A stretch of 64,000 nt of DNA from Candidatus Moranbacteria bacterium GW2011_GWE2_35_2- (GTDB taxonomy: Bacteria; Patescibacteriota; Minisyncoccia; Moranbacterales; UBA9337), in contig LBQD01000001.1 in the NCBI GenBank assembly GCA_000990585.1, forward strand, positions 141,501-205,500. The letters are read 5' to 3'. The notes beneath the pieces were generated by a model that searched no databases, was not told the DNA's origin, and saw nothing but the letters and a program-made list of their open reading frames with translations. Each line of letters starts with the position of its first letter. Position 1 is the first letter of the stretch. Shown piece after piece: positions 15,081 to 42,854 of the stretch. A program made the translations under genes and the position numbers.

Positions 15081-16295
15081 ATGAATATAAAAATAAAAAG
15101 ATTGCGAGTTACGGCAAGCGCTTTTTTTGGAGTGTTGGTTTTTTTGTTTTCGTGTTCGTTTTTTTTCAATATTAAATTCGGATCAGCTGAAGAAATTTGT
15201 TCTTCAGTAGAAGAATGCGACAAAAAGAAAAAAGCTTATGAAAAAATTATTGAGCTTAAACAGGCACAGCAAGCTACTCTTGGAGGACAAATTAATGGAA
15301 TTGTTTCAGAAATCCAAAACGTTGAAAACAATATCGTAGAAAAAGAAAAAAGTCTTGAAGAAATAAACAACAATATCGAAGAATTGATTCGGAAAATCAG
15401 CCAGCAAGAAGAATCAATAAAACTTCAAAAGAAAATGCTTGGCGGATTGCTTCGAGCTTATTATGACTATGATCAACGCAATGTTATTTCTTTGGTTTTA
15501 AACGGAAAAGGATTTTCTGCCGCAAGTAAGAATCAAGATTATTTGACCCAAGCCAGCGGAAAAGTAAAAGAGATTTTATCAAATATCAAATCGCTGAAAA
15601 ATTCTACCGAAGAAGATAAAAAAAAATTAGAAGGGAGTAGGGAAGATATAGTTTCTATTAAAAATGAACTTGAAGAAAAAAATTCATATCTTGAAAGCGC
15701 GAAAGCGCAGAAAAGAAATTTGCTCGCGCAAGTGCAAGGAGATGAGCAAAAATACAGAGAACTTCTTGATATAATTGAAAATGAAATATATGAATTGGAA
15801 GCCGGAAAGATTGCTGATTTAGACAAACTTCCTCCGGCAAAAGGCGGGTACTTCGATTATCCGGTCGGCAGTGTGCGCATTACGCAAGGCTACGGAATGA
15901 CATCATTCGCAAAAGCTGGAGCCTATGGAGGAAAACCGCATAATGGAGTTGATTTCGGGATTAGTTACGCGCCCATATACGCAGCCGGAAACGGAAAAGT
16001 TATCAGCTCCGGCAATAATGGAAAATATGCTTATGGAAATTGGATTGCAATTGATCATGGTGATGGATTGGTCACCTTATATGGTCATTTGAGCAAGAAA
16101 TCCGCTTCCAAGGGGGATAAGGTGAAGAAAGGGGAGAAAATAGGTATTAGTGGAAATACGGGATATTCCACCGGACCACATCTTCATTTCTCCGTCTTTG
16201 ATAAGGATAGCTTTGGAGTTGTTGAATCGAAATATGTCGACGGACTTTATATCCCAACCGGCGCATCAGTAAATCCAATGAGATACCTTGACTAG
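15081..16295 (+). CDS. M23 family metallopeptidase with N-terminal coiled-coil (EnvC/NlpD-like)
   Basis: HNGVDFG...IDHGDGLVTLYGHLS...GNTGYSTGPHLHFSVF, the M23 LytM catalytic motifs. A long coiled-coil precedes them. Confidence 0.85.
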   Translation: MNIKIKRLRVTASAFFGVLVFLFSCSFFFNIKFGSAEEICSSVEECDKKKKAYEKIIELKQAQQATLGGQINGIVSEIQNVENNIVEKEKSLEEINNNIEELIRKISQQEESIKLQKKMLGGLLRAYYDYDQRNVISLVLNGKGFSAASKNQDYLTQASGKVKEILSNIKSLKNSTEEDKKKLEGSREDIVSIKNELEEKNSYLESAKAQKRNLLAQVQGDEQKYRELLDIIENEIYELEAGKIADLDKLPPAKGGYFDYPVGSVRITQGYGMTSFAKAGAYGGKPHNGVDFGISYAPIYAAGNGKVISSGNNGKYAYGNWIAIDHGDGLVTLYGHLSKKSASKGDKVKKGEKIGISGNTGYSTGPHLHFSVFDKDSFGVVESKYVDGLYIPTGASVNPMRYLD

Positions 16296-16365
16296 TTTTC
16301 ATTACATCCCTTTTTATTCTTCGTGTATTCAAAATTTCTTTTTAATAAAAAATATCGCAAATGAG

Positions 16366-16380
16366 TTGTGCGACATTGTG
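16366..16380. repeat. Left copy of a 14-15 bp direct repeat, TTGTGCGAC(A/G)TTGT, flanking ORF 16441..17076
   Basis: TTGTGCGACATTGTG here, TTGTGCGACGTTGT at 17100..17113. Confidence 0.55.
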
Positions 16381-16382
16381 TG

Positions 16383-16400
16383 TAGGGTATATCTACCCTA
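16383..16400. promoter_or_regulatory. Perfect 7-bp-arm palindrome, TAGGGTA-TATC-TACCCTA, 40 bp upstream of ORF 16441. Candidate operator.
   Basis: The arms TAGGGTA and TACCCTA are exact reverse complements around a 4-nt spacer. Confidence 0.35.
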
Positions 16401-16440
16401 TCGAGAAGAGTGGAGAAACAAACAATAGAGAATAATAAAA

Positions 16441-17076
16441 ATGAAAAATAATAAAATTTGGACACTTGAAAAAGTAAAAGAAGGTTTTGAAAAGTTTTAT
16501 AGTACCTATAATAGATATCCTACTGCATATGATATTGATGATTTTAATTTCCTGCCATCGTCAAGACAAATCCAAAGAAGCTTTGGCGGTTTAGTTAAGC
16601 TAAGAAAAATACTAGAATTAAAAATTGAAAATTATGGAAACGGGAAATCCAGATCTCGGCTAGCACATAATTCAAATATACTGGGTAAAAAATGCGAACG
16701 CATAGTATTGGAGTTATTAAAAAATAAATTCGATGAGAAATTTGTACATATAGAAAAACCAGTAGAAGGGGATTATAAAAATCGCTTTGACTTTTATGTA
16801 TATGCTAAACCTAAAAATTTTGCAATTGATGTTTTTGGAAGTGATGATACTAGGAATCTTGTGAATAATTTCAATATAAAAGAGAAAAAATATTTAAAAT
16901 CAAATAACGAAAAGGAATCTTTGTATTTTATTTATATTGGAGACAAAATAAATGAAAGTAAATTGGCTATTTGGTATCAAAAAAAGAAATCTAAAATACC
17001 AAAAAATTGGAAGATTATAAGTCTTAAAGAATTAAAAAAGGAAATGAATAGGTATGAGGCTTATCGCGCTATATAG
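16441..17076 (+). CDS. Hypothetical protein in an AT-rich island. The C-terminal half has weak PD-(D/E)xK-nuclease-like features. The call is tentative.
   Basis: RFDFYVYAKPKNFAIDVFG and an upstream ExK-like stretch (HIEKPVEGDYK) loosely fit a restriction-endonuclease-like fold. The N-terminal domain (TAYDIDDFNFLPSSRQIQRSFGG) is unrecognised. Codon usage is more AT-rich than the neighbouring genes. Confidence 0.35.
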   Translation: MKNNKIWTLEKVKEGFEKFYSTYNRYPTAYDIDDFNFLPSSRQIQRSFGGLVKLRKILELKIENYGNGKSRSRLAHNSNILGKKCERIVLELLKNKFDEKFVHIEKPVEGDYKNRFDFYVYAKPKNFAIDVFGSDDTRNLVNNFNIKEKKYLKSNNEKESLYFIYIGDKINESKLAIWYQKKKSKIPKNWKIISLKELKKEMNRYEAYRAI

Positions 17077-17099
17077 TATCAAACTTCGTGAAATCTACA

Positions 17100-17113
17100 T
17101 TGTGCGACGTTGT
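17100..17113. repeat. Right copy of the direct repeat TTGTGCGAC(A/G)TTGT flanking ORF 16441..17076
   Basis: TTGTGCGACGTTGT. Pairs with 16366..16380. Confidence 0.55.
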
Positions 17114-17379
17114 TAATTTAGCGCAAAAGCGTACTCTCTACTCTTTTTAAATAAAAAATTAAAAGAAATTATTTTTACAATTTGTTTTTGAGATATATTA
17201 TTTATTCTTTTTTTATAAAAAGTTTTCTGTAAAATAAATCAACCGCTATCTCATCTTAATTATTTTACTAATAGAAAAAATTATCTATATAAAATAAAAA
17301 TAAAAAAAGGCTCCCCTTTTCGGAATATTTCTATTCCTATTTCAGAGAACCCAAGTAAAACTATCTTTTTTGCTGTTTT

Positions 17380-17646
17380 TTATGTGGGGATTATACTAAC
17401 CACTCCACTGCAACAGGCTGAACTTGTATTTAATACGTACTGTTTACCGTTAAGAGAGCATAAACCCTCTTTTTTTGATTTACAGCATAAACACAAGTGT
17501 CGTCCGCGTGTTGCCATGAAGGCATGTGAGCATTCGGCACTGAAGGTAGTGCCTTGAATTTTGCCATAGATAACTCCCTTTTTTAAACAGGAGGGGTTAT
17601 CTTCCTGAATAATTTGAGCGACACAATATAATTGTTCTCTGCTCAC
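17380..17646 (-). CDS. Cysteine-rich small protein (9 Cys in 88 aa; GTG start), encoded immediately downstream of iscU in the isc operon
   Basis: AAGGAG RBS 6 nt upstream of the GTG. Cys residues clustered as ...CLCC... and ...ACCSG.... GC content is higher than the flanking non-coding DNA. Confidence 0.45.
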   Translation of the reverse strand: MSREQLYCVAQIIQEDNPSCLKKGVIYGKIQGTTFSAECSHAFMATRGRHLCLCCKSKKEGLCSLNGKQYVLNTSSACCSGVVSIIPT

Positions 17647-17728: not shown

Positions 17729-18115
17729 TCAAGCTTTACAGGATTGGTATTTTTTGATGGCTTTTTGCAGGGCTGTGGCGGCAAGATTGCTGCAATGAAA
17801 TTTTGGCGCTGGAAGTCCCCCCAGTTCGTCGGCTACCATTTGATTGGTAATCGCGAGGGCCTCTTTCAAGGTCTTACCCTTGGCCATTTCTGTGGCCATA
17901 GACGATGTGGCAATCGCTGCTCCACAACCCAAAGTTTCAAATCCAATATTTTCAATTATTTCCTCTCCCCCTTTGTTTTTTCCAACCTTAATATAAATCC
18001 GCATAATGTCTCCACATTTCGGATTGCCAACAGTCGCCACCGCATCAGCATCCTTGAGTGGTCCCTGATTGCGCGGCTTGGCAAAATATTTCAAAACTTT
18101 TTTTGAATAATTCAT
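17729..18115 (-). CDS. iscU: Fe-S cluster assembly scaffold IscU/NifU
   Basis: GNPKCGDIMRIYIKV...GFETLGCGAAIATSS...KFHCSNLA: the three conserved scaffold Cys motifs. Confidence 0.85.
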   Translation of the reverse strand: MNYSKKVLKYFAKPRNQGPLKDADAVATVGNPKCGDIMRIYIKVGKNKGGEEIIENIGFETLGCGAAIATSSMATEMAKGKTLKEALAITNQMVADELGGLPAPKFHCSNLAATALQKAIKKYQSCKA

Positions 18116-18175
18116 TTTAAAATTTTTAATTTCTAATTTCTAATTTTTAAACAATTTTCAAATATAAAAAATTAA
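18116..18175. repeat. AT-rich dispersed repeat (AATTTCTAATTTCTAA...TAAACAATTTTCAA family) in the iscS-iscU intergenic region
   Basis: Closely similar to the segment at 953..1040 inside ORF1. More distantly related to the inverted arms at 35091..35182. Confidence 0.45.
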
Positions 18176-18199
18176 AAACAAGAAATCTTTATAAAATAT

Positions 18200-19429
18200 T
18201 TATTTAAATTCACTCAAAACATTTCCGGAAATTTTTCGGAGCCTTTGGACAGTTTCTTTGAGTACTTTAACAGTCCTGTCCAGTTCCGCTTTTGTGGTAT
18301 ATTTCCCGATGGTTATGCGCAAACTTCCATGCGCTTGTTCATGCTTAAGTCCCAACGCCAAGAGTACGTGAGATGGCTCAAGCGCCCCGGATGAACAAGC
18401 ACTGCCGGTTGAAGTGGCGATTCCTTCCAAATCCAAAGAAAGAATAAGTCCCTCCCCTTCCACATTATCAAAACGAAAATTAGCATTATTCGGTGAACGC
18501 TTTTCTTTTGAACCATTCAGATATGCGGCGGGAATTTCTGTTAATACTCGTTTAATCAAATAATCCCTTAGTGAAATAATCTTTTTTATTATTGCTTGCT
18601 GTTTACCACTAGCTGTTAGCATATCAACTGCCTTCCCTAGTCCGACAATTCCCGTAACATTGTGAGTTCCGGCGCGGAGTTTGTATTCTTGATCGCCGCC
18701 ATCTTGAATTCTGCGAATCGGCGTACCTCTTTTTGCAAACAAAACCCCCACTCCCTTGGGACCATATATTTTGTGTCCGGAAAATGAAAGCAAATCCACT
18801 CCAATTTTTTTCACATTGCAATCAAAATAATTTACACTCTGGGTTGCATCGGTATGCAACAATGGATAATGAATTCCTTGATTGTTACTTCTCAATTTTT
18901 GGATTAATTTTCCAATTTCCGCAATTGGCTGGACTGTTCCGATCTCATTGTTCACATACATAATTGAAATCAAAATTGTATTTGGCTTGATCGCTTTTTT
19001 GACATCCGCAATTTTCACAATTCCATCCCTCCCTACTGGCAAAAAAGTAATTTCCGCCAAACCTTCTTTTTTCATCGCATGGCAAGCATCCAAAACGCAA
19101 TGATGCTCAAAGACGGTTGTAACGATGTGCGGGATTTCTCCTTTTTTGCGCGAAACGGAATAGAATGATTTTACCACACCTTTAACAGTGAGATTATTGC
19201 TTTCTGTGGCTCCGGAAGTGAAAATTATTTCCGAAGGAGAACAGTTGAAAAATTTTGCCACTCTTTCCCTGGCTGTGTCAATTGCTTGCTGGGCCTCTTG
19301 TCCAAAATTATGCACGGACATTGCATTTCCAAACTTCTCGGAAAAATAGGGTATCATTTCCTTCATTACATTTTTGTCGACTGGCGTAGTCGCCGCATAA
19401 TCCAAATATATTCCCTTATTGTTGTTCAT
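18200..19429 (-). CDS. iscS: Cysteine desulfurase (IscS/NifS, class V aminotransferase)
   Basis: PLP-lysine region SFSGHKIYGPKGVGVL. Active-site Cys in ATSTGSACSSG. Confidence 0.9.
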   Translation of the reverse strand: MNNNKGIYLDYAATTPVDKNVMKEMIPYFSEKFGNAMSVHNFGQEAQQAIDTARERVAKFFNCSPSEIIFTSGATESNNLTVKGVVKSFYSVSRKKGEIPHIVTTVFEHHCVLDACHAMKKEGLAEITFLPVGRDGIVKIADVKKAIKPNTILISIMYVNNEIGTVQPIAEIGKLIQKLRSNNQGIHYPLLHTDATQSVNYFDCNVKKIGVDLLSFSGHKIYGPKGVGVLFAKRGTPIRRIQDGGDQEYKLRAGTHNVTGIVGLGKAVDMLTASGKQQAIIKKIISLRDYLIKRVLTEIPAAYLNGSKEKRSPNNANFRFDNVEGEGLILSLDLEGIATSTGSACSSGALEPSHVLLALGLKHEQAHGSLRITIGKYTTKAELDRTVKVLKETVQRLRKISGNVLSEFK

Positions 19430-19474
19430 ATTTTTTATAAATAAATTTATTTTTTACTTTTTATTTTCTAAATA

Positions 19475-19861
19475 CTATTTTATTAAATCTTCTAGCGTGA
19501 TATTTTTCAATGTTTTTCTAATCTGAATTCCGAGGGCAACCCAGACTTTTTTTGACCGGCAATTTTTGGAAGTACAATGTGAACTTTCGCATTTCATAAA
19601 CTCCAAAGGACCTTCCAGTGTTTCGATAATTTCTCCGACATTAATTTTTTTCGGTTCGCGCGCCAAAACATATCCTCCCATTTTCCCCTTTTGACTCACA
19701 ACCAGATTTTTTTTGCGCATATATCCCATCAAACGTTCCAAATATTTGAAAGAGATTTTCTCTTCTCCGGAAACATCACTAAGACTCTTAATTTCCGGAT
19801 AGGCATCCGCCAAATTAATAATCGCCCGCAGGCCATATTCAGCTTTAGTCGAAAAACGCAT
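19475..19861 (-). CDS. iscR: Rrf2-family transcriptional regulator (IscR-like)
   Basis: N-terminal wHTH MRFSTKAEYGLRAIINLA typical of Rrf2. Heads the iscS-iscU operon. Confidence 0.75.
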   Translation of the reverse strand: MRFSTKAEYGLRAIINLADAYPEIKSLSDVSGEEKISFKYLERLMGYMRKKNLVVSQKGKMGGYVLAREPKKINVGEIIETLEGPLEFMKCESSHCTSKNCRSKKVWVALGIQIRKTLKNITLEDLIK

Positions 19862-20194: not shown

Positions 20195-20301
20195 GTTATT
20201 TTTTATTTTCCAAAAAAATATTTATTGGATTTTTCTTTATTGTCGACATTGCTTAGTGGGCGTGATATAATTTTAAATAATCAGTGATAAACAACAAAAT
20301 T

Positions 20302-21432
20302 ATGCGAATATCATATAGCGCGTTGGAAACATATCGTAATTGTCCGCTTAAATACAAATATCAAAATATTGATAAAATCAAAGAACCTAAGAGTAAAGAG
20401 GCGGTTTTTGGGACAATTATTCACAGCGCTCTAAAATTTGCTCATACTCCGGGCATTCTTTCCCCTACCCTTGAACAAACACTGGATTATTTTTCCCGTA
20501 ATTGGAACAGTGATGTTTTTGAAGTGGAAGCTGAAGAACGCGCGGCTTTTTCCCAAGGCGTGGAAATGATTCGAAAATACTATGAAAAAAACAACATTGC
20601 GGCAACTAATATCGTTGATTTAGAGAGTCGATTTGCGATTGATTTAGAAGGTAATGTTATTTCCGGAATAATTGACCGCATTGACAAAACAGATGATGGC
20701 TATGAAATTATTGACTATAAAACTGCCAAAAAAATGCCTTCGCAAGAATATGTTGATAATAATCTTCAGCTGTCGGTTTATTTGAAAGCATTTTTAGTTC
20801 GTTATCCGGAGGAAGCGAAAAATTTAGAAAAAATAAAGGTGAGTTTATATTTTCTTAAACACGGAGTAAAACTCACCGCTAGCCGAAATTTGCAACAACT
20901 TCAAAAAATCGATGAGGAATTTTTGGAAGTTATTAAAAATATCGAGGAGAGAAAATTTGATCCGAATATCACTCCACTTTGTGATTGGTGTGGATATCAG
21001 AAACTTTGCCCGATGTGGCGACACAAATTTAAAAATGAAAGAAAAATTGATACGGAAGATGTGAATCAAATGATCGGAGAATATATCGTCGCTAAAGAAG
21101 AATCTAAGAGTTTGAGATATAAAATAGCCGCGCTTCAAGAAAAAGTTTCACAATATATGGATCAGGAAGGAGTTGAAAGGGTTTTTTCAGAAAATGGAAT
21201 AATCGTCAGAACACTGCGATCAACCTACAAATATGATGAAAAGAAAATAAGAGAAATTCTAGCGCCATTGGGACAATGGGAAAATGTAGTTAAAATTGAC
21301 GCCATCGCTTTGAAAAAGATTATTCCCGCCTTACCTGTTTCTATTCGTAATGAAATAGACTTGGCGCGGGAAATAAGCAAACAATCAAGCAGTTTTAGTA
21401 TTAAAAAGCAAAATGAGACAGAGGAAGAGTAA
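20302..21432 (+). CDS. Cas4/RecB-like PD-(D/E)xK nuclease with a 4-Cys Fe-S cluster motif and a ~170-aa C-terminal extension of unknown function
   Basis: An N-terminal Cys (YRNCPLKY). Nuclease motifs IIDRIDK...YEIIDYKT (D...ExK). A C-terminal C-x2-C-x5-C in PLCDWCGYQKLCP. This is the Cas4/AddB-type arrangement. Confidence 0.7.
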   Translation: MRISYSALETYRNCPLKYKYQNIDKIKEPKSKEAVFGTIIHSALKFAHTPGILSPTLEQTLDYFSRNWNSDVFEVEAEERAAFSQGVEMIRKYYEKNNIAATNIVDLESRFAIDLEGNVISGIIDRIDKTDDGYEIIDYKTAKKMPSQEYVDNNLQLSVYLKAFLVRYPEEAKNLEKIKVSLYFLKHGVKLTASRNLQQLQKIDEEFLEVIKNIEERKFDPNITPLCDWCGYQKLCPMWRHKFKNERKIDTEDVNQMIGEYIVAKEESKSLRYKIAALQEKVSQYMDQEGVERVFSENGIIVRTLRSTYKYDEKKIREILAPLGQWENVVKIDAIALKKIIPALPVSIRNEIDLAREISKQSSSFSIKKQNETEEE

Positions 21433-34134: not shown

Positions 34135-35085
34135 GTGTATAATATATCTGAAAATCAAAATAATATAGAAATAAAAATGCGCAACGTAAAATTCAAAAAT
34201 TTAACATGGATTGATTTTGACAACCCTACCGCAGATGACGTTGACTATTTACGGGAAAATTTTAATATTCACCCTATTCCAATTGAAGAATTTATTACTC
34301 CAACTATTCGCCCCAAAGCGACTCAATACAATAACTGTCTTTTTTTGACCGTGCACATTCCTCTTTTTGAAACCAAAAACCGCACAATCTATACCGGTGA
34401 GCTGGATATTATCCTAACGAAAGATCATCTGATTACCGGTCATAAATACGACATATTCCAATTGACATCCTTTTTTGATTCACTGAAGAAAAGCGAAGGA
34501 AAACGTCGCTTATATATGAGCCAAACCCCATCTCATCTACTTTATCAGATTTTGGAAATATTGATTGATTCTTGTTTTCCCAGATTGCAACATATTTCTG
34601 ATACGCTTGCCAAAATTGAAAAAAATGTTTTTAATGGAATGGAAAAGGATATGGTATATGAAATTTCTGTTATCAAGCGCGATACCTTGAATTTCCGCCG
34701 CGCTCTCAAACCGCAAAGATCAATTCTTGAATCGCTAGTGCAAATGAATTCTCCATGGATCGACTCGTCGATAAGACCTTATTATTCAGACTTGATTGGA
34801 ACAAATATCCGCCTCTGGAGCACACTGGAAAGCATTAAGGAAACGATTGAATCATTAGAGGACACAAATAATTCTCTTTTATCCAACAAATTGGATTTCA
34901 CGATGAAAGTCCTTACAATTTTTTCTGCTGTAATGCTTCCAATGACTGTATATTCAAATATTTTGGCAATGAGCGCTGATATTCCCTTCGGAAACAATCC
35001 TTATGGATTCTGGATCCATATCGGAATAATGGGGATGATTTCCTTGTTTACTATTATTTTGTTTAAAACTAAAAAGTGGATTTAA
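34135..35085 (+). CDS. corA: CorA-family divalent cation transporter, with the canonical GMN motif replaced by AMS
   Basis: CorA cytoplasmic domain followed by two C-terminal TM helices. The loop reads YSNILAMSADIP where the YGMNFxxMPEL motif is expected. Confidence 0.6.
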   Translation: MYNISENQNNIEIKMRNVKFKNLTWIDFDNPTADDVDYLRENFNIHPIPIEEFITPTIRPKATQYNNCLFLTVHIPLFETKNRTIYTGELDIILTKDHLITGHKYDIFQLTSFFDSLKKSEGKRRLYMSQTPSHLLYQILEILIDSCFPRLQHISDTLAKIEKNVFNGMEKDMVYEISVIKRDTLNFRRALKPQRSILESLVQMNSPWIDSSIRPYYSDLIGTNIRLWSTLESIKETIESLEDTNNSLLSNKLDFTMKVLTIFSAVMLPMTVYSNILAMSADIPFGNNPYGFWIHIGIMGMISLFTIILFKTKKWI

Positions 35086-35090
35086 AATAA

Positions 35091-35182
35091 GAAATAGGAA
35101 TTAGGAGTTAAAAGTTAAGATTTTTTACTTATATACATATATGAAAAATATAATTCCTAATTCCTAATTCTTAATTTTATTT
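35091..35182. repeat. AT-rich inverted-repeat element between corA and cysS, related to the AATTAG(G/A)AATTAG motif family. It may also act as the corA terminator.
   Basis: Arms are GAAATAGGAATTAGGAGTTAAAAGTTAAG and TAATTCCTAATTCCTAATTCTTAATTTTA around a ~30-bp spacer. Confidence 0.4.
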
Positions 35183-35187
35183 TTAAA

Positions 35188-36618
35188 ATGCTTTTATATA
35201 ACACACTCACTAAGCAAAAAGAAGAATTTAAATCGATAAATCCAGGAAAAATCGGAATGTATGTTTGTGGTCCAACTGTCTACGATTATATTCACATCGG
35301 AAATATCCGCGCCTATTTAAACGCGGATACCTTACGTCGATATTTGGAATATATCGGATATGAGGTGCGGCTAATTAAGAATATCACCGACGTCGGTCAT
35401 CTTACTGGAGATGATATTAATCAAGGAGATAGTGGCGAAGACAAGCTTGCCAAGAAATCACTGAAAGAAAAAAAATCCCCGAAAGAAATAGCCGAATTTT
35501 ACGAAAAATATTTCAAAGAAACAGAAAAAGAAATGAATATTTTGCCAGCTAGCTATTTTCCAAAAGCTACTGCGCATATCGAGCAGATGATTAAAATAAT
35601 CAATGGATTGATCAAAAAGGGATTTGCTTATGAAAAAAATGGAAATGTGTTTTTTGATATTGAGAAATTTTCCCAATATGGAAAGCTTTCTGGAAATACA
35701 TTGGAAAATCTCAAAATCGGAGCTCGCCTCGAAGAGCATCCGGACAAAAAAAATCCGTGGGATTTCGCCCTTTGGCTTAAAGCTCCTGAAAAACATCTAA
35801 TGCGATGGGAATCTCCTTGGTCAGTTGGATATCCAGGATGGCACATTGAGTGTAGTGCGATGAGTACGGAGTATTTAGGTGAAACTATCGATATTCATAC
35901 CGGAGGAGAAGATAATATTTTTCCTCATCACGAAGCAGAGATCGCTCAAACAGAATGCTATACTGGAAAAAAATTTGTAAATTATTGGATTCATGTCAGA
36001 CATTTGCTTGTTAATGGAGAAAAAATGTCAAAATCCAAGAAAAATTTTTACATTCTTGGTGATATAAAAGAAAAAGGATTCAACGCAATGACACTTCGCT
36101 TACTTTTATTATCTTCTCACTATCGATCGAATCTTAATTTTACATGGAAAGGAATGAATCAGGCTAAGGTAAATTTGCAAAAAATTTCAGATTTTGTTTT
36201 GAATCTTGAAATTATGGCAGCGCAAGATTTGGATATAGAAATCTCCGCTAAAATTCCGCTTGATGAATTTCAAAAACGTTTTGAAAGCGCAATGAATGAT
36301 GATCTTAATGCCCCGTTGGCGTTAAGCGTGTTATATGAACTTATTAATGAAGTAAATAAATTAACTTCTGCACAAAGATTGCCTTCAAAAAAATCTCAGG
36401 AAATTCTTTCGCTTTGGGAAAAAATGAATTCTGTTTTTGGATTTAAACTTAACGGTCAAGCAGAAATTCCTGAGGAAATTTTAGAATTAGCGAAAAAACG
36501 CCAGCATTCACGTCAAGAAAAAAAATTTCAAGAAGCAGACAATTTTCGCAAAAATATTGAAGAAAAGGGATACTTAGTGGAAGATACCGGTACAGGCTTT
36601 AATATAAAGAAAAAATAA
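35188..36618 (+). CDS. cysS: Cysteinyl-tRNA synthetase
   Basis: CGPTVYDYIHIGN (HIGH) and KMSKSKKNF (KMSKS). The zinc-binding Cys/His are present. Confidence 0.9.
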   Translation: MLLYNTLTKQKEEFKSINPGKIGMYVCGPTVYDYIHIGNIRAYLNADTLRRYLEYIGYEVRLIKNITDVGHLTGDDINQGDSGEDKLAKKSLKEKKSPKEIAEFYEKYFKETEKEMNILPASYFPKATAHIEQMIKIINGLIKKGFAYEKNGNVFFDIEKFSQYGKLSGNTLENLKIGARLEEHPDKKNPWDFALWLKAPEKHLMRWESPWSVGYPGWHIECSAMSTEYLGETIDIHTGGEDNIFPHHEAEIAQTECYTGKKFVNYWIHVRHLLVNGEKMSKSKKNFYILGDIKEKGFNAMTLRLLLLSSHYRSNLNFTWKGMNQAKVNLQKISDFVLNLEIMAAQDLDIEISAKIPLDEFQKRFESAMNDDLNAPLALSVLYELINEVNKLTSAQRLPSKKSQEILSLWEKMNSVFGFKLNGQAEIPEEILELAKKRQHSRQEKKFQEADNFRKNIEEKGYLVEDTGTGFNIKKK

Positions 36619-36620
36619 TT

Positions 36621-37253
36621 ATGCAAATCATTACTATTTCAGGATTGGATGGATCCGGAAAATCCACTCAGATTCAAATGCTCAAAACTTATCTTGAATC
36701 GCAAGGCAAGCAGGTTTTTTATTTTCATGCCATCGAATTTGGAATTGCCACCAAATTGGCGGAATTAAAGAAAAAATATTGCTTGATTTGTAAAATAAAA
36801 GGGCTATGTCAGATTAAACCATATATCAAAAAAAGTATCACGAAAGCCAATTGGATTCAAATTCAGCTTCGCAAAATATTTTTAAAAATTGATATTTTCA
36901 GATTTGAAAAATTAAAGCGTAAATTGGAAAGCCGAAATTTTGATTATATTCTCAGTGACCGATTTTTTTATGATAGTGTGATTAACATTCAATATCTTTT
37001 GAAAAATTTTGATGCGGAAAATTTGAAAAATTATAAAATCGAGCAACCGTTTCTGGGAATTTATCTTGCAGCTGATCCGAAAATTATTATGAATCGCCAA
37101 CGCAAGCCTGACCAAGGAGTGGAATATCTCAAGGAAAAAAGATCTTTGTATGACGCGGCGGCAAAAATTTGGGATCTAAAAATAATCGATGGAAACAAGG
37201 ATAAAAATGTTATTTTTGAAGAAATTAAAAATATAACAAAAATGGAAACATAA
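36621..37253 (+). CDS. Thymidylate kinase-like P-loop nucleotide kinase, with an internal insertion
   Basis: ITISGLDGSGKSTQ P-loop and an SDRFFYDSVI (DRY-like) motif. A ~40-aa Cys-containing insert lies between them. Confidence 0.55.
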   Translation: MQIITISGLDGSGKSTQIQMLKTYLESQGKQVFYFHAIEFGIATKLAELKKKYCLICKIKGLCQIKPYIKKSITKANWIQIQLRKIFLKIDIFRFEKLKRKLESRNFDYILSDRFFYDSVINIQYLLKNFDAENLKNYKIEQPFLGIYLAADPKIIMNRQRKPDQGVEYLKEKRSLYDAAAKIWDLKIIDGNKDKNVIFEEIKNITKMET

Positions 37254-37313
37254 AAAAAACAGACCGCCCCATGCATTGCAAGGAAACGGTCTGCTGTCGA
37301 TTACGGATTGCTC

Positions 37314-37673
37314 TTATTGGATATTTCTTTTAAAAACCAGAAACGACATTAAAAGAGAAACCCAAAATATTGCCACGAACGCAACCGCCCAACCCAACAT
37401 TATTACCATTTCCTTATTAAGTCCATTGAACTTGTCTAGGAAATGATACACTGGGATAATCGTATCGCAGATAAGCGGAATACTGGAAAGGGCAATTATT
37501 GGAAGAAACATCTGTTGCAGAATTTTCTCCATAAAAAAGCAAACTATCAATAAGGACATCAACAATAATAACATTTCTATGCCCTCTATTCCTAACACTT
37601 CTATCATCTCTCCTCCCCCTCCTAATGATTTTGATAAAAAGAACTGCCAATTTAAATAACCACAGTATTTCAT
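37314..37673 (-). CDS. Hypothetical small membrane protein
   Basis: Three hydrophobic segments. No motif recognised. Confidence 0.3.
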   Translation of the reverse strand: MKYCGYLNWQFFLSKSLGGGGEMIEVLGIEGIEMLLLLMSLLIVCFFMEKILQQMFLPIIALSSIPLICDTIIPVYHFLDKFNGLNKEMVIMLGWAVAFVAIFWVSLLMSFLVFKRNIQ

Positions 37674-37693
37674 ATTAAGATAATATCAAAAAA

Positions 37694-39181
37694 ATGTCAA
37701 AACAACATATTGCAAAATCGGCACTTTGGGTTGTGATCTCGGAGATTGTTTTTAACTTGTCCGGTTATATTATCCATAGCGTTGTCGGGAGGATATTGGG
37801 TCCGGCGGATTACGGACGCTACGGATTGGTCGTTACGCTTACCACAATGGTGATTATTTTGATTGGAAATGGAATCCCTACTGCAATGGCAAAATATATC
37901 AGTGAAATCTTTGACTCTAATCCGGCAATGGTTCTGGCGATTAAGCGGCGGGCAATTTTTTTGCAAAGCGCTATCATTGGAAGTATAACCTTATTGTTTT
38001 ATCTCCTTTCGCCATTAATTGCAAGAATATTGGGAGATCCGACACTCACTCATCTTTTTCGCATCTCAACCTTGATTATTCCGGCATTTGCCGCGGCTTC
38101 TTTTTATTTTTCATATTACACGGGACTTCATCTTTTTAATTTGCAGTCGATTCTCAAGGTTTCCCGTTCCGCAGTAAAAGTTATCGCCATTATTTTGCTG
38201 GCATATTTTTTTCATCTCAAAGGATCAATAGTCGGGTACATTCTTGCTCCGGCATCAGTTTTCCTGATTGCGTGGCTGATCGACAGATTCAGCGTTACAA
38301 AAAAAATTCGTGCTCAAATTACCGCTCAAAAACTTGAAACTGCTTCGTTCCCCTGGCAAAAACTTACGAATTACGCTTGGCAAATAATCATTTTTTTCTT
38401 GGCATACGAGCTTCTTATTAGTATCGATCTTTATCTTGTTAAAGGGATTTTGCATAGCGACTACCAAACCGGAATATATAATGCCGCCCTTACGGTTGGA
38501 CGCATTCCTTATTATATTTTTTATGCTCTTACGGTAATTTTACTTCCAACAATTTCAAAATCAACTTCGGAAAATAATCACGCGGAAACAAACAAAATCA
38601 TCAATCAATCTCTTAAAGTGATGATTATTCTTTTAGTGCCGGCAGTAGTTCTAATGTCAGTATTCGCTGAACCGATCATTAGAATATTCTACACGTCAAA
38701 ATATATTGATGCTGCCGCTCCAATGGCAATTCTCGTTGGCGGTGTTGGATTTTTGACGATATTTTATGTAATGAGTTTTGTAAGTAATGGTGCTGGAAAA
38801 ACTAAGCGACCGATGCTTATTTCTATATTTGGGTTAGTTATAAACACTATTCTCAATTATATTTTAATAAAAAAATATGCCTTAATCGGAAGTGCTATTG
38901 CTACATCTATCAGCTCATTGATTGTTATGTTGGTCGCGCTTTATTATATTCGTAAAGATTTTAAAATTACTTTAAAAATTAAAAATTATCTAAAAATAAT
39001 TTTTGCGGGAATTATTATGTATTCCCTCTCTCTTTTCTTTTCTCAAGGACGGTTTATTTTTATCTTATGGGCAATAATTTTACTTTTCATTTATTTCGCA
39101 ATTTTATATTTTATGGGTGAAATAGAAAAAGAGGAAATAATTTTCTTTCGAAAAATGTTATTTCGAAAAAATAACAAGTAA
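37694..39181 (+). CDS. Polysaccharide/oligosaccharide flippase (MOP superfamily, Wzx-like)
   Basis: About 14 predicted TM helices with Wzx-like spacing. Sits in a glycosylation gene neighbourhood. Confidence 0.6.
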   Translation: MSKQHIAKSALWVVISEIVFNLSGYIIHSVVGRILGPADYGRYGLVVTLTTMVIILIGNGIPTAMAKYISEIFDSNPAMVLAIKRRAIFLQSAIIGSITLLFYLLSPLIARILGDPTLTHLFRISTLIIPAFAAASFYFSYYTGLHLFNLQSILKVSRSAVKVIAIILLAYFFHLKGSIVGYILAPASVFLIAWLIDRFSVTKKIRAQITAQKLETASFPWQKLTNYAWQIIIFFLAYELLISIDLYLVKGILHSDYQTGIYNAALTVGRIPYYIFYALTVILLPTISKSTSENNHAETNKIINQSLKVMIILLVPAVVLMSVFAEPIIRIFYTSKYIDAAAPMAILVGGVGFLTIFYVMSFVSNGAGKTKRPMLISIFGLVINTILNYILIKKYALIGSAIATSISSLIVMLVALYYIRKDFKITLKIKNYLKIIFAGIIMYSLSLFFSQGRFIFILWAIILLFIYFAILYFMGEIEKEEIIFFRKMLFRKNNK

Positions 39182-39231
39182 ACACATATTAAACTATAAG
39201 CCTTGTTTTTCAGATAAAAAATTGCTATGCT

Positions 39232-40704
39232 TTGTTTATGAAAAATTTTCTAATAAATAAGGATTTTTGGAAAGCTCCCGGGTTTATATTATTTTTAATC
39301 CTTTTTTCTTTTTTTTTGCGCGAAGTTTTTTTGGTTGCCGTCTTCCCTATTTTTTCCGGACAAGATGAGGCGCGTCATTATAATACTATCCAATATTTAA
39401 ACGAGCCAAAAGAAAAAGTATGGGAAATTCGAGAAGCTGAGCAAATAAATGAGAAAAAAAATCTTGATACATATAATTTTTCCGAAGAAATAATCAATAC
39501 CGGAAACGCAGCTGAGATATTCGGATTTAAAGACTCTTTAAATAAAATAAATTTTCCCGCAGGAAGCATGGGTCGTAATGAAAATTTGATTAATTCTCGC
39601 CAATGGGAAGCTATAAATAAGAAATATCCCCCGGACATTACAGGCAGAGGCTATCAAGATTTGTATCATAGACTAGGGGCATTTATTGAAAAAAAAATCA
39701 GCAATCAAAGTATTTTAATACGTTTTTATTTGATCCGCATCTTTTCTGTTATTCTAGCGACTATATTTATTTTTCTTTCTTATTTTGTTTTTAAAAATTC
39801 CGGATTTTCCAAACAGCACAGCCTGATAATGACTGCTATAATTTCATTTCAAATGAAATTTTCCACTTATATGACAAATATCAATTATGCTCCATTGATG
39901 TTTGTCTCTTTTGCCGGTTTTACATTAGGAGGGGTTCTTTATCTTAAAAACGGATTACACTGGAAGAATATTTCATTAATGTTGGCGTCTGTTGTTATTG
40001 GAATATTTACCAAAGGTTCGGCTATTGTTTTAATTCCGGTTTTTGTTGGTCTTTTAGGATTTACGACTTGGAAAAAAATTAAAGAAGATAAAATAAACAA
40101 AAAAAACATTATCCTGGTTATTATTCTTTGTATATTTTTAGTATCACTTCTTTGTAGAAGTTATGATGTTTTGTCTTTTTTGCCAAAGACTGGCGGTGGA
40201 ATTGGCAAGACTATAGAATCTTTTTCTGATTATGCGTCCGCCAGTTTGCCAAAGATATACTCTTTATCAAAAAATTATTGGGGAAAAATAGGATGGGTCA
40301 GAATCGATTATGCTCTGAGCTTTATCTGGATAATTTGGATAATAGAAGCATTCGCACTTTATGGAATCGTTCGTTTCTTATTTTTTAAAGACAAAAGACC
40401 TGATTTTATTCCAGAAAGAAAATATATTTGGTTTTTCCTGACATTAATTATAGCATTGCAAATTGGAATTCGTTTTTTTGATTGGAGAATTTTTTCTACT
40501 AGCGGAAAACTAAATCTTGGAACACCGGGTAGATATTTCTTGCCAAATCTCCCGGTTCATATTGCCCTACTTTTTTCCGGATTAGGAATAATTATAAAAA
40601 AGAAAAGTTATTTTGATTATTTGATTGTGTTTTTTTTAATTTTAATATTCTTGCTTTCATTTCACATTATTTTCAATGTGATTGTTCCTCGTTATTACTT
40701 ATAA
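39232..40704 (+). CDS. GT-C fold membrane glycosyltransferase (PMT/ArnT-like)
   Basis: The first extracytoplasmic loop carries an acidic DE motif (FSGQDEARHY). Many TM segments follow. Confidence 0.45.
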   Translation: MFMKNFLINKDFWKAPGFILFLILFSFFLREVFLVAVFPIFSGQDEARHYNTIQYLNEPKEKVWEIREAEQINEKKNLDTYNFSEEIINTGNAAEIFGFKDSLNKINFPAGSMGRNENLINSRQWEAINKKYPPDITGRGYQDLYHRLGAFIEKKISNQSILIRFYLIRIFSVILATIFIFLSYFVFKNSGFSKQHSLIMTAIISFQMKFSTYMTNINYAPLMFVSFAGFTLGGVLYLKNGLHWKNISLMLASVVIGIFTKGSAIVLIPVFVGLLGFTTWKKIKEDKINKKNIILVIILCIFLVSLLCRSYDVLSFLPKTGGGIGKTIESFSDYASASLPKIYSLSKNYWGKIGWVRIDYALSFIWIIWIIEAFALYGIVRFLFFKDKRPDFIPERKYIWFFLTLIIALQIGIRFFDWRIFSTSGKLNLGTPGRYFLPNLPVHIALLFSGLGIIIKKKSYFDYLIVFFLILIFLLSFHIIFNVIVPRYYL

Positions 40705-41425
40705 CCATATGATGTTTTTTAAATACGCAATATCGCGCAAGACATTACTAGGGATATTTACTATCGGTCTTGTTTTAATTTTTGGCAGTCTGATTAAAAA
40801 TTTTTCTTTTCCTGATCAGAATTGGAATTTGGAAAAAGGAAAAAAAATAGGAATAAGCTCCGAAAAAAATGAAGAAGTTATTCAAAAATTCATTGCTAGT
40901 AAGGATAATCTTTCTCGTATAGATATTTTTTTGGGAAATTCAAAGATTGAAAGAGGTGGAACTTTGCAATTGGAGCTATTTAATAAATCATGCGAAAAAC
41001 TTCTCCGTAAAGATAAAATCAGAACCACAAGAATAAAATCTGAAAACTTTTTTACTTTTACTTTTCCAAAAATTCAAAAAACAGCAAATGAAATTCTTTG
41101 TATTAAACTTTCTTTTTATGATTGGAATAGCGACAAAAATAGAAGCGCTCAAGTATTTGTTCGCGACAATATTTTACCTGAAAATGTATTTTTCTCAATA
41201 AATCAAGAAATTATAAAAGGAAAGTCTTTATCTATGCGTCCAGCTTATCAAGAAAATTCGTGGCGAGAAAATATTTGGAAATTAAGCGAAAGAATATCTC
41301 AATATAAGCCGTGGTTTCTAAAAAATATGATCATCTTGTCTGTTTTAGTTATTGCGATTATCTCTTCAATTTTGCTAGTTGTAATAATTATATTTACTAT
41401 CATTAATAAATCTACTCTATCGTAA
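40682..41425 (+). CDS. Hypothetical membrane-anchored protein (N- and C-terminal TM)
   Basis: Hydrophobic termini only. Overlaps the upstream gene end by 23 nt. Confidence 0.35.
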   Translation: MFLVITYNHMMFFKYAISRKTLLGIFTIGLVLIFGSLIKNFSFPDQNWNLEKGKKIGISSEKNEEVIQKFIASKDNLSRIDIFLGNSKIERGGTLQLELFNKSCEKLLRKDKIRTTRIKSENFFTFTFPKIQKTANEILCIKLSFYDWNSDKNRSAQVFVRDNILPENVFFSINQEIIKGKSLSMRPAYQENSWRENIWKLSERISQYKPWFLKNMIILSVLVIAIISSILLVVIIIFTIINKSTLS

Positions 41426-41431
41426 AAAATA

Positions 41432-42844
41432 ATGGATATAAAAAATTTAAAAAAATTAACCCTACTTTTTTTAATTGTTCTTTTTTGTATTTTCTTAAAC
41501 CCGTCTTCGGCATTAACTGCCAGTTATGATTATTATGTAAAATCTTCAGCTTCAAAAGACGGAGACGGGAGTAAAGACGATCCATTTAGATTTTTTTCGG
41601 ACGCATTGGAAGAAGCGGACAATTCTGATAAAATATTTATTGCGAATGGTTTTTACGATGAAGAAGATATTTATATCGGAAAATCAATAAAAATAATCGG
41701 AGAAAGTGAAAACGGAGTTGTTTTTTCCGGAAAAATTTTGATGGGAAATAATTCGTTACTGCAAAATGTCAGTTTAAAAGATGCGCGGTCAAAAATTATT
41801 ATTGAAAAAGATGCCAATGCAACGATTCAAAATTGTACCGTACAAAATTTTTCCGGAATCGGGATTGAATCAATGCCAGGAAGCGGTACGCTTGAAATTT
41901 TGAATTCAAAAATAAAAGGAGGTGATAATAAAGGAATATATGTGCAGCGAGGAAAAAATATTAAAATTATTGGAAGTGAGATTATCGGAAACGAAGAAGA
42001 AGGAATCGATATTCGGTCGAATGTTTCAGGAATTATAAAAAATAATTTAATTACTAATAATAATGAAAGCGGGATTGAACTTATAGTTGGAAGCGCAAAT
42101 TTGAAAATATCCGACAATAAAATAAACGGCAATAATGCAAGCGGGATCGCAACACAATTCTACAAAGAATTTAGCAAAAGAGGAAGTATTTATATTGAAA
42201 ACAATTCATTGAGTGAAAATGGGAAATATGGAGTTGATTGCGCTAATCCGCATAATGGTGCCCCGGAAATTTCTTATTGGAGAAATTCTATTGAGATAAA
42301 TGGGAATGATATTTCGTTGAATGAAATAAAATCTATAAACGATCTTTGTAATTTTATTGATGCCGTAGAAGAAAATGAGGATGCGGACAATTTAATTACA
42401 GAAAATAAGAGTGTAGGAAATAAGTTAATTATGGATATGGAAGAAAAAGAGAAGATTAGAATAGAAGAAGATAAAAAAAGAGAAGAAAAAGAGCAGAAAT
42501 TAAACGAGATCGAGAATATAATAGAAAATCAAATTCAAGAAAATTATAAAACAGACTCCTTTATTGAAAAAATTAATCACCAATCAAAAATTATTAAATT
42601 TTTTATCGGAACAAAAAAAGTAAAACTTGAAATGTTATTGGAAAATATAGAAAAAAATGAAAATCGTCTTAGAGAAGCCGAGCAAATACTAGGAATGATT
42701 CAAGTTGAAGCCGAGGAAGAAGTATCCATTCTAAATACAATAAAAGAAAATCAAGAAAAACTTAGACAACAAAAAGAATTTATTGCCGAAGAAGATAAGA
42801 TCTTTGGTATTTGGAAATGGCTGTCAGGATTATTCAGTGATTGA
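41432..42844 (+). CDS. Secreted right-handed parallel beta-helix repeat protein with a C-terminal coiled-coil
   Basis: Signal peptide. Repeated NxxGIxI / GNNASGI beta-helix (pectin-lyase-fold) repeats. A Glu/Lys-rich coiled-coil tail. Confidence 0.6.
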   Translation: MDIKNLKKLTLLFLIVLFCIFLNPSSALTASYDYYVKSSASKDGDGSKDDPFRFFSDALEEADNSDKIFIANGFYDEEDIYIGKSIKIIGESENGVVFSGKILMGNNSLLQNVSLKDARSKIIIEKDANATIQNCTVQNFSGIGIESMPGSGTLEILNSKIKGGDNKGIYVQRGKNIKIIGSEIIGNEEEGIDIRSNVSGIIKNNLITNNNESGIELIVGSANLKISDNKINGNNASGIATQFYKEFSKRGSIYIENNSLSENGKYGVDCANPHNGAPEISYWRNSIEINGNDISLNEIKSINDLCNFIDAVEENEDADNLITENKSVGNKLIMDMEEKEKIRIEEDKKREEKEQKLNEIENIIENQIQENYKTDSFIEKINHQSKIIKFFIGTKKVKLEMLLENIEKNENRLREAEQILGMIQVEAEEEVSILNTIKENQEKLRQQKEFIAEEDKIFGIWKWLSGLFSD

Positions 42845-42854
42845 TTTGATTTTT

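Follow-up and report, generated by a model that had tools for sequence, protein, structure and literature searches.

The window analysed here is the whole stretch of 64,000 nucleotides (nt) at positions 141,501 to 205,500 of contig LBQD01000001.1, from Candidatus Moranbacteria bacterium GW2011_GWE2_35_2-. The locus of interest comprises an open reading frame (ORF) of 211 amino acids (aa), called ORF211 (16441-17076, plus strand), and a 28-bp sequence that follows it (17083..17110, plus strand). This sequence has the layout of dif, the site of Xer recombination, and a second, crippled copy of it precedes the gene (16352..16376, plus strand). We consider it reasonably probable that 17083-17110 is the dif site at the chromosome terminus of this bacterium of the candidate phyla radiation (CPR) and that ORF211 is a long-term resident beside it. 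To the left lies an M23-family peptidase gene (15081..16295, plus strand; Pfam PF01551, E 2.9e-29), the conserved left neighbour of the site or of ORF211 in CPR genome and metagenome loci, where tblastn synteny shows it as part of a GltX-M23 block. To the right lies the convergent IscU-IscS-Rrf2 operon (17729..19861, minus strand; Pfam NifU_N, Aminotran_5 and Rrf2), which is the conserved right neighbour in the lineage of the window.

ORF211 is preceded by a non-coding spacer of 145 nt. Downstream, about 225 nt of AT-rich spacer extend to the terminator of the isc operon, and the next ORF begins after about 300 nt. We read as this terminator the hairpins followed by a T-run at ~17303-17345 on the minus strand (AAAAGGGGAGCCTTTTTTT on that strand; -14.9 kcal/mol, z -3.0), which form the right end of the AT-rich spacer beyond the site and were not listed by the terminator scan. 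The GC content of ORF211 is 26.7%, against 35% for the rest of the window, the second lowest value among 54 ORFs. The ORF and its AT-rich flanks were described correctly in an earlier reading of the window (the original prediction), which interpreted the gene as a small, horizontally inserted module, for instance a homing nuclease gene flanked by duplicated copies of its target.

That reading also placed the gene between two direct repeats. Both exist, TTGTGCGACATTGT at 16366-16379 (the upstream end had been set one base too far, at 16380) and TTGTGCGACGTTGT at 17100-17113, and these copies are the sole zero-mismatch matches in the 64 kb. A perfect palindrome, TAGGGTA-TATC-TACCCTA, is likewise present at 16383-16400 (no strand assigned) and ends 40 nt before the ATG. 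Markov-1 shuffles produced a 13/14 match between the two AT-rich spacers in 5% of cases and a perfect hairpin-type palindrome of 7 bp in 8%; judged within the window alone, the repeat and the palindrome are only marginally beyond chance. The repeat was accepted as real because it recurs in the loci of other genomes, that is, from comparison and not from the window alone. The suggestion that the repeats are copies of a protein recognition sequence was borne out, since they are arms of a conserved 11-6-11 site: the downstream repeat is the right arm of 17083-17110 and the upstream repeat is the right arm of the crippled copy.

Sites of the dif type consist of 11-bp arms around a 6-bp spacer, show partial dyad symmetry and are intergenic; they are kept in single copy despite changing neighbours and lie near the extreme of the cumulative GC skew (PMC2958812; PMC3025954; PMC9765430). 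The site of the window is composed of a left arm ACTTCGTGAAA (17083-17093), a centre TCTACA (17094-17099) and a right arm TTGTGCGACGT (17100-17110), that is, two arms of about 11 bp with partial dyad symmetry and a centre within the 6-8 bp range. The same 11-6-11 layout was found in more than 30 genome loci and in 113 distinct metagenome sites. For instance, the nearest relative, L176, has ATGTCGTGAAA-TCTACA-TTGTGCGACGT, and more distant loci have ACGTCGTGAAA-GATATA-ATGTGCGACGT (L001), ACGTCGCATAA-TATACA-ATGTGCGACGT (L011), ACGTCGTTCTA-TGTAAC-TTATGCGACAT (L013) and, in the Dehalococcoidia-labelled L041, ATTTCGCAGAA-TGTAAC-TTTCACGTAAT.

The genome comparison rests on 55 loci from Moranbacteria, Parcubacteria, Giovannonibacteria, Saccharibacteria, Doudnabacteria and others, with a few Dehalococcoidia or Actinomycetes labels. 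In about 25 of them, from many CPR lineages, the 8-mer TGTGCGAC stands 8-76 nt past the stop codon of the ORF211 homologue, and in several it is also found before the gene. In about 37 of the 52 evaluable loci the 11-6-11 site adjoins the gene, downstream of it or, in some cases, upstream; the metagenome-assembled genomes (MAGs) carrying it by the gene are labelled Moranbacteria, Parcubacteria, Saccharibacteria, Doudnabacteria and Dehalococcoidia. A metagenome scan with the 19-mer AAAAGATATATTGTGCGAC returned at least 120 stretches with varied flanks and one copy per stretch, including stretches from contigs of 0.6-0.9 Mb, and the 113 distinct sites yield the consensus AYGTCGYAAAA-GATATA-TTGTGCGACRT. 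The window itself contains one full site and one crippled copy in its 64 kb.

The position of the site is consistent with a replication terminus. The cumulative G-C maximum of the window is at 17059, 24 nt from the site, and the gene strands switch there, with 10 of 14 genes to the left on the plus strand and 32 of 41 to the right on the minus strand; most loci of the GltX-M23 type agree. Per-gene skews in the window contain a replichore component beyond the coding-strand effect, the replichore term improving a strand-corrected regression from a sum of squared errors of 735 to about 495. In 14 of the 55 genome loci the skew maximum within +/-6 kb lies at most 60 nt from the stop codon of the gene, where the site is located, and the gene runs at these loci are +++++ then ---. 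Among loci anchored on the motif, 28 of 47 have converging flanking genes and 3 have diverging ones; of 28 loci, 12 show a skew that goes from positive on the left to negative on the right, and 1 shows the opposite.

Genes of the Xer family adjoin the site in several loci: L039, L041, L045 and L055, labelled Dehalococcoidia, and the CPR metagenome loci L070, L088, L112, L133 and L157. The encoded proteins match the NCBIfam XerC/XerD/XerA models at E ~1e-72, below the XerC/XerD/XerA/XerS equivalog cut-offs. In the Dehalococcoidia-labelled loci the order is ORF211 homologue, site (the L041 sequence given above) and a xer gene with a TTGATATAAT promoter; L041 and L055 have a common HflX-like upstream gene, and L039 and L045 have a different upstream neighbour. 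This gene-site-xer unit reflects either horizontal transfer or mis-binning.

Related contigs can have one flank in common exactly up to the site and differ from there on (L081 and L143; L114 and L173). The 19-mer is also present in 26 IMG/VR contigs. In two of these, L194 (2200-7631) and L198 (2067-7517), the site occurs twice in direct orientation, with a distance of 5.4 kb. Annotation of the intervening element in L194 revealed a Zot-like assembly ATPase (phrog_197, 1e-7) and a rolling-circle Rep (phrog_3419, 2.4e-14), whereas none of its ORFs was recognised as an integrase. The right-hand (second) copy has an altered left arm in both contigs (ACCGCACAAAAAA in L194). Elements of this type are inovirus-like and appear to integrate via the host Xer system, with the signature of integrative mobile elements exploiting Xer (IMEX); their host is probably a CPR bacterium, judging solely from the shared site sequence. 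Since flanks switch exactly at the site and integrase-less inovirus-like elements are bounded by two copies of it, there is indirect support for recombination at this sequence.

The crippled copy upstream of ORF211 is formed by a left-arm-like ATATCGCAAA (16352-16361), a spacer TGAG (16362-16365) and the right arm TTGTGCGACAT (16366-16376). Thus, both arms are present and the centre has 4 nt, not 6. It is kept as ATATCACAAATGAGTTGTGCGACAT in L176, in which GltX-M23-ORF211-site is followed by another called ORF (167 aa) and then by IscU. Upstream sites are more collapsed in L031 (ATGTCGC directly joined to TTGTGCGACAT), L028 (GTGTCGC joined to the same arm) and L046 (GTCGCG joined to TTGTGCGAC), and L001, L002 and L004 have instead a lone right arm ~545 nt upstream, just past M23. 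Direct-orientation arms stand on both sides of the gene in the window, L176, L001, L002, L004, L028, L031, L037, L040 and L046, and the two copies of the window have the same orientation with a single ORF between them. IMEX lack an integrase and are bounded by dif on one side and, in the same orientation, by a dif-like copy on the other; this locus has that arrangement. The integrated element LME-1 of Legionella owes its stability to a second dif copy that is altered (PMC9765430). On the model of known Xer sites, a copy whose centre is defective should still be bound by its proteins but not recombine.

The right arm of the crippled copy could have another function. Its TTGTGC (16366-16371) stands at the -35 position of a candidate ORF211 promoter (16366..16393, plus strand), with a 16-nt spacer and a -10-like TATATC (16388-16393), and L176 has the same hexamers and spacing. 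Elsewhere, TTGTGC is followed after 17 nt by TATAAT (L037), TATGAT (L031), GATAAT (L028), GAAAAT (L040) or TAATAT (L014). Because TTGTGC stands 16-17 nt before -10-like hexamers in several lineages, the right arm may double as the -35 element of the ORF211 promoter. A sigma-70 promoter inside the downstream site was also considered and rejected, the spacings being inconsistent. The palindrome overlaps the -10-like hexamer, and RNA from 16345-16405, which includes the palindrome and the pseudo-site hairpin, folds at -14.5 kcal/mol (z -2.5). Its counterpart in L176, whose protein is 68% identical, is TGGGGTA-TATC-CACCTA, and the changes are not compensatory. The palindrome was rejected as a conserved operator since it is not palindromic in L176; it is probably incidental or species-specific. 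A different element of ~120-150 nt is conserved just upstream of ORF211 in L001 (5840-5960) and, in similar form, in L002, L004 and L038; it looks base-paired (GGCTTATTTAAGCC ... GTGGTATAGGCGTACC ... GGCTTAGCTAAAGCC) and has no Rfam family at gathering score.

The original prediction recognised a loosely PD-(D/E)xK-like C-terminal half in the ORF211 protein and proposed structure prediction as a check. The AlphaFold model (pLDDT 84.8) contains two domains: residues 1-66 form a helix-turn-helix (HTH) domain related to HNH_repeat, and residues ~69-211 adopt the PD-(D/E)xK fold, with the restriction-endonuclease-like alpha-beta-beta-beta-alpha-beta core. The likeness therefore stands at the level of fold, at which ORF211 is a putative nuclease; it does not extend to a typical catalytic motif. 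The relation of the N-terminal domain to HNH_repeat (PF18780) comes from matches of 12 out of 20 N-terminal domains of the family (best E 3e-5), that of the window being below the reporting threshold. The whole protein gave no match in Pfam, PHROGs or NCBIfam, nor did a sequence-profile search of the PDB.

ORF211 is not an orphan but belongs to a family that is conserved in CPR. A first search found 66 relatives at 36-68% identity to the window protein, plus one identical hit; a profile search found 308, and an exhaustive search 689 clusters at 50% identity. All have ~200-290 aa, none is annotated or carries a Pfam domain, and neither Pfam nor NCBIfam has a model for the family. Residues W7, R42-Q-I-Q-R46, G49-G50-L51, E86, H103, K113, D130, K147 and Y151 are invariant in the family alignment and D117 is conserved in at least 90% of members, D117 and D130 being located on consecutive strands of the fold. 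The gene is under purifying selection comparable to that of an aminoacyl-tRNA synthetase.

With respect to inheritance, the order GltX-M23-ORF211 is conserved in about 30 of the 55 genome loci across CPR lineages. Loci L001-L012 share LigT-WecG-GltX-M23-ORF211 followed by IscU-IscS-Rrf2 and then by PDDEXK_1 and UMP kinase. Pairwise identity of ORF211 correlates with that of GltX (Spearman 0.67, 231 pairs) more closely than that of M23 does (0.43), and there are no large outliers. In L176 the gene and both repeats are at the same place. The horizontal insertion originally proposed is, as a recent event, not supported by this synteny, by the tracking of GltX or by the arrangement in L176. The gene and the site also stay together when the surroundings change: in L013 and L017 M23 is located on the opposite side of the site and directed toward it, in L014, L023 and L051 the site is upstream of the gene, and the Dehalococcoidia-labelled loci have different neighbours with xer alongside.

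The site occurs without the gene as well. Many loci have GltX-M23-site and no ORF211 (in L111, M23 ends 78 nt before the site), others have M23-site-PDDEXK_1 (L107, L101) or site-IscU-IscS-Rrf2 (L078, L090), and in L090 an M23-like gene is followed by a lone arm, 548 nt without ORF211 and then the site. The comparison with relatives suggested by the original prediction thus gave the expected gene-free arrangement, M23 followed by the isc operon or by other genes, with the site in between. The contents of the interval between lone arm and site vary.

Several known systems resemble this locus. The dif site of Escherichia coli is GGTGCGCATAA-TGTATA-TTATGTTAAAT (PMC3025954). In common with XerCD/dif, the CPR site has 28 bp, 11-bp arms with imperfect dyad symmetry and a 6-bp AT-rich centre, is intergenic, lies at a GC-skew shift or gene convergence, and persists next to changing neighbours; in some CPR sites, such as L011 ACGTCGCATAA-TATACA, the left arm and centre closely resemble those of proteobacterial dif. 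However, its right arm, TTGTGCGACRT, departs from the XerD arm, and no recombinase was identified in the window. The two arms of the CPR site are more alike than those of XerCD sites, which hints at a single recombinase. XerS/difSL, XerH/difH, XerA/dif and XerL/dif similarly have more palindromic sites. In such single-recombinase modules the recombinase gene often adjoins its own site (PMC5357621). The arrangement ORF211-site-xer of the Dehalococcoidia-labelled loci, and the xer gene beside the site in five CPR metagenome loci, are comparable to XerS/difSL and XerH/difH, whereas the lineage of the window has a nuclease-fold gene, not a recombinase gene, beside the site. As for the dif site of Legionella, flanking duplications and mobile elements provided the clue to the site (PMC9765430).

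IMEX (CTXphi, TLCphi, the gonococcal genetic island and LME-1) and the pdif modules of Acinetobacter are also bounded by a functional dif and an altered direct copy that stabilises the insertion, and have no integrase of their own; the inovirus-like examples described above appear to use the CPR site. ORF211 differs from them in being a single gene with long vertical inheritance and no phage or plasmid functions, absent from viral contigs. Among PD-(D/E)xK proteins, the NgoMIV/Cfr10I/EcoRII-C/PspGI group, Hjc and XisH share ~10% identity with ORF211, with no match at the sequence level in the PDB or Pfam, and ORF211 is distinguished by its motif D...D-x-F, with the lysine on the following helix, and by having no methyltransferase partner nearby. 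At the tus-TerB and rtp-IR loci, the gene for a DNA-binding protein lies at the terminus and its promoter overlaps a copy of a terminus site; Tus and RTP are not nucleases. ORF211 would be analogous to them as a predicted DNA-binding gene at the terminus with a copy of the terminus site over its candidate promoter. It differs from them in its nuclease fold, and the likeness carries no sign of fork arrest.

If 17083-17110 is dif, Xer-family tyrosine recombinases would bind its arms and swap strands across its centre, resolving chromosome dimers, and integrase-less filamentous phages would use the same dif-like site to integrate. Recombination of the CPR site by Xer is what the analogy with known dif sites leads us to infer. 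ORF211 would then sit between a live site and a crippled copy, and it would not be excised because a copy with a 4-nt centre should not recombine. An arm-binding protein (Xer or ORF211 itself) could repress the gene, given that the candidate -35 element falls within the right arm of the crippled copy. The region between the lone or crippled arm and the live site would form a cargo slot of dif, of which ORF211 would be an old and selected occupant in some lineages, being absent in others.

Different observations weigh against this interpretation. No xer gene was found in the 64-kb window by tblastn or among the 10 mid-sized ORFs that were checked, and 5 of the 11 positions of the right arm deviate from the canonical XerD arm TTATGTTAAAT; to our knowledge, the XerD arm is near-universal. 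Copy number was counted on contig stretches rather than whole genomes. The strand-corrected switch in skew can be placed only between ~17 and 28 kb of the window, and pinpointing the terminus by regression was dropped at this resolution. In one CPR lineage, with the layout FtsW-MurG-[319-aa ORF, no Pfam hit]-site-type IV secretion system (T4SS) coupling-like ATPase, both flanks of the site have positive skew and there is no switch, so the association with the terminus is supported for part of the lineages. With respect to ORF211, 117 of the 120 listed stretches with the probed site variant lack the gene and 3 carry it, which indicates that the gene is not needed for the site to exist. Lone right arms occur without ORF211 300-700 nt to the left of the site in 20 of 117 loci, against ~8 expected, and no physical link between ORF211 and the arms emerged. 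The catalytic motif departs from the canonical form, with D130-V-F in place of (D/E)xK and the invariant K147 on the next helix. Finally, a consensus promoter scan did not call the ORF211 promoter, which it missed because TATATC has no final T.

Other explanations account for part of these data. ORF211 could be fossil cargo of an element integrated at dif in the manner of an IMEX, locked in by the loss of one centre, that is, a selfish or addictive nuclease with no role at dif. We regard this as unlikely, even though direct-orientation arms surround the gene in the window and nine other loci, some loci have the gene in the M23-site slot and others lack it there, and the slot has other contents elsewhere, such as the EVE-domain ORF of L174. 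The GC content of the gene, ~8 points below that of its flanks in 49 of 50 loci, and its homologues adjoining a dif-like site in Dehalococcoidia-labelled MAGs point in the same direction. Integrase-less inovirus-like elements also appear to use this site, their second copy having an altered left arm, and LME-1 of Legionella is stabilised by a modified second dif copy (PMC9765430). However, the divergence of ORF211 tracks that of GltX with no strong outliers, its putative catalytic residues are invariant across the family, no homologue was found in IMG/VR viral contigs, no replication or assembly genes accompany it, and in L003, L006 and L008 it stands directly after M23 with no upstream arm. 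A mobile IMEX would be sporadic, horizontally transferred and found as an excised circle, whereas GltX tracking, synteny and absence from IMG/VR characterise ORF211; presence or absence at the slot and low GC point the other way, which leaves some probability to an ancient IMEX origin. A free-standing homing endonuclease that spreads by cutting empty alleles, the repeats being duplicated halves or copies of its own target, is very improbable. An HNH_repeat-type DNA-binding domain, typical of homing endonucleases, joined to a nuclease fold would suit this role, empty alleles exist, and a highly conserved and apparently single-copy site would be an appropriate target. But such genes are sporadic and destroy the target in the allele that bears them, while ORF211 is syntenic and vertically inherited beside an intact full site that is far more widespread than the gene and has its own explanation as a Xer site. 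The homing-type insertion and the duplicated nuclease target of the original prediction fail on these grounds: the repeats are arms of a dif-like site that is gene-free in the 117 listed stretches mentioned above.

There is also little to recommend the repeats as paired operators of an ordinary transcription factor, possibly ORF211 itself, unrelated to recombination, and we give this explanation a very small chance. The upstream copy does lie at the -35 position in several lineages and ORF211 does have an HTH domain, but the 11-6-11 site to which the downstream copy belongs mostly occurs without ORF211, between converging genes and at the borders of prophage-like elements. A structured RNA, with the inverted repeat as a 3' untranslated hairpin, a terminator or a small RNA, was suspected at first from apparent compensatory changes in the outer pairs of a handful of loci, and in several loci a true terminator follows 40-70 nt downstream. 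It was rejected on covariation, fold z-score and Rfam, and is hardly credible: just outside GTCG/CGAC, the 113 distinct sites contain 47 Watson-Crick pairs against 46.8 expected (p 0.54), the copy of the window folds no better than shuffled sequence (z +0.5) and is not followed by a T-run, and Rfam 15 has no match to the repeats in the window at E<=10 nor, at gathering score, to six related loci. With no covariation, no fold signal and no Rfam family, the site is better explained as a palindromic protein-binding site than as RNA.

Returning to ORF211 as a resident of dif, its domains suggest that the protein may bind or cut DNA at or near the site. The more specific role that we favour, as an accessory or guardian nuclease of the Xer/dif reaction, has a rather low probability. 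ORF211 would then be a dedicated nuclease of dif, the second enzyme, beside the recombinase, at the locus that resolves chromosome dimers in part of the CPR. In such a role, ORF211 would bind the TTGTGCGAC arm via its HTH domain. It might process Holliday junctions made by Xer, so that a recombinase exchanging one pair of strands would suffice, or it might destroy foreign dif mimics, for instance the folded attachment-site DNA (attP) of inoviruses, guarding a site that phages exploit. The pseudo-dif in the promoter would tie expression of ORF211 to the occupancy of the dif arms. XisH offers a precedent for a nuclease-fold excision factor. Another precedent is a repair enzyme (Endo III, a base-excision-repair factor) that is reported to bind the Xer-made junction in CTX phage integration (PMC3442271).

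In the literature searched we found no description of a CPR dif/Xer system, of inovirus-like use of a CPR dif or of a nuclease family resident at dif. CPR/Patescibacteria represent a large share of bacterial diversity, and the 28-mer is a simple searchable marker that could be used to orient or check CPR assemblies and to separate chromosome from integrated elements; it also seems to serve integrase-less inovirus-like prophages of CPR for attachment. We found no described counterpart of an HTH plus PD-(D/E)xK family located in a dif slot with a disabled dif copy in its promoter. Should ORF211 take part in the Xer reaction or guard the site, it would be a new kind of component in a pathway not known to need more than recombinases and FtsK; if it has no such role, the locus would still show a dif site collecting and fixing cargo.

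Some minor observations concern the surroundings of the site. Of 99 distinct metagenome loci (L056-L175), 55 have a YTCCCY box (e.g. CTTCCCCTA) to the right of the site, at a distance of 15-95 nt, and 8 have one to the left, where GGGGA (the complement of the box) is mildly enriched. On the bottom strand the box reads RGGGAR and points at the site; it might be a polar motif similar to the FtsK-orienting polar sequences (KOPS) or the SpoIIIE recognition sequences (SRS). The DnaA-box 9-mer TTATCCACA occurs within ~80 nt to the right of the site in L047, L058, L084 and L174, in the shared context GTTATCCACAGG, with ~0.07 occurrences expected by chance over all loci. In the FtsW-MurG lineage (L074, L096, L128, L166, L172 and related loci), ~50 nt on each side of the site are conserved, the 319-aa ORF is on the plus strand, and the ATPase, of ~900 aa, is convergent with the FtsW-MurG-ORF run; the guess that this ATPase is FtsK was rejected, as it is a T4SS coupling-protein-like ATPase (TrwB/VirD4).

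Other features of the window are the following. A gene for a PDDEXK_1 / Cas4-like, AddB-like nuclease (20284-21432, plus strand) is syntenic near the dif-like site in many CPR loci, and it stands directly to the right of the site in L014, L101 and L107. Between the site and IscU there is a candidate Cys-rich ORF of 88 aa with no family match (17380-17646, minus strand), in whose place L176 has a different called gene (L176:3760-4263). A PreQ1-riboswitch-like match at 17367-17409 (minus strand) reaches 17.7 bits against a gathering score of 39 and is probably due to chance. Further to the right, a run of plus-strand genes (34135-42844) breaks the otherwise minus-strand replichore, and a low-GC block at 39238-44594 (28-31% GC), partly inside this run, may be an island.

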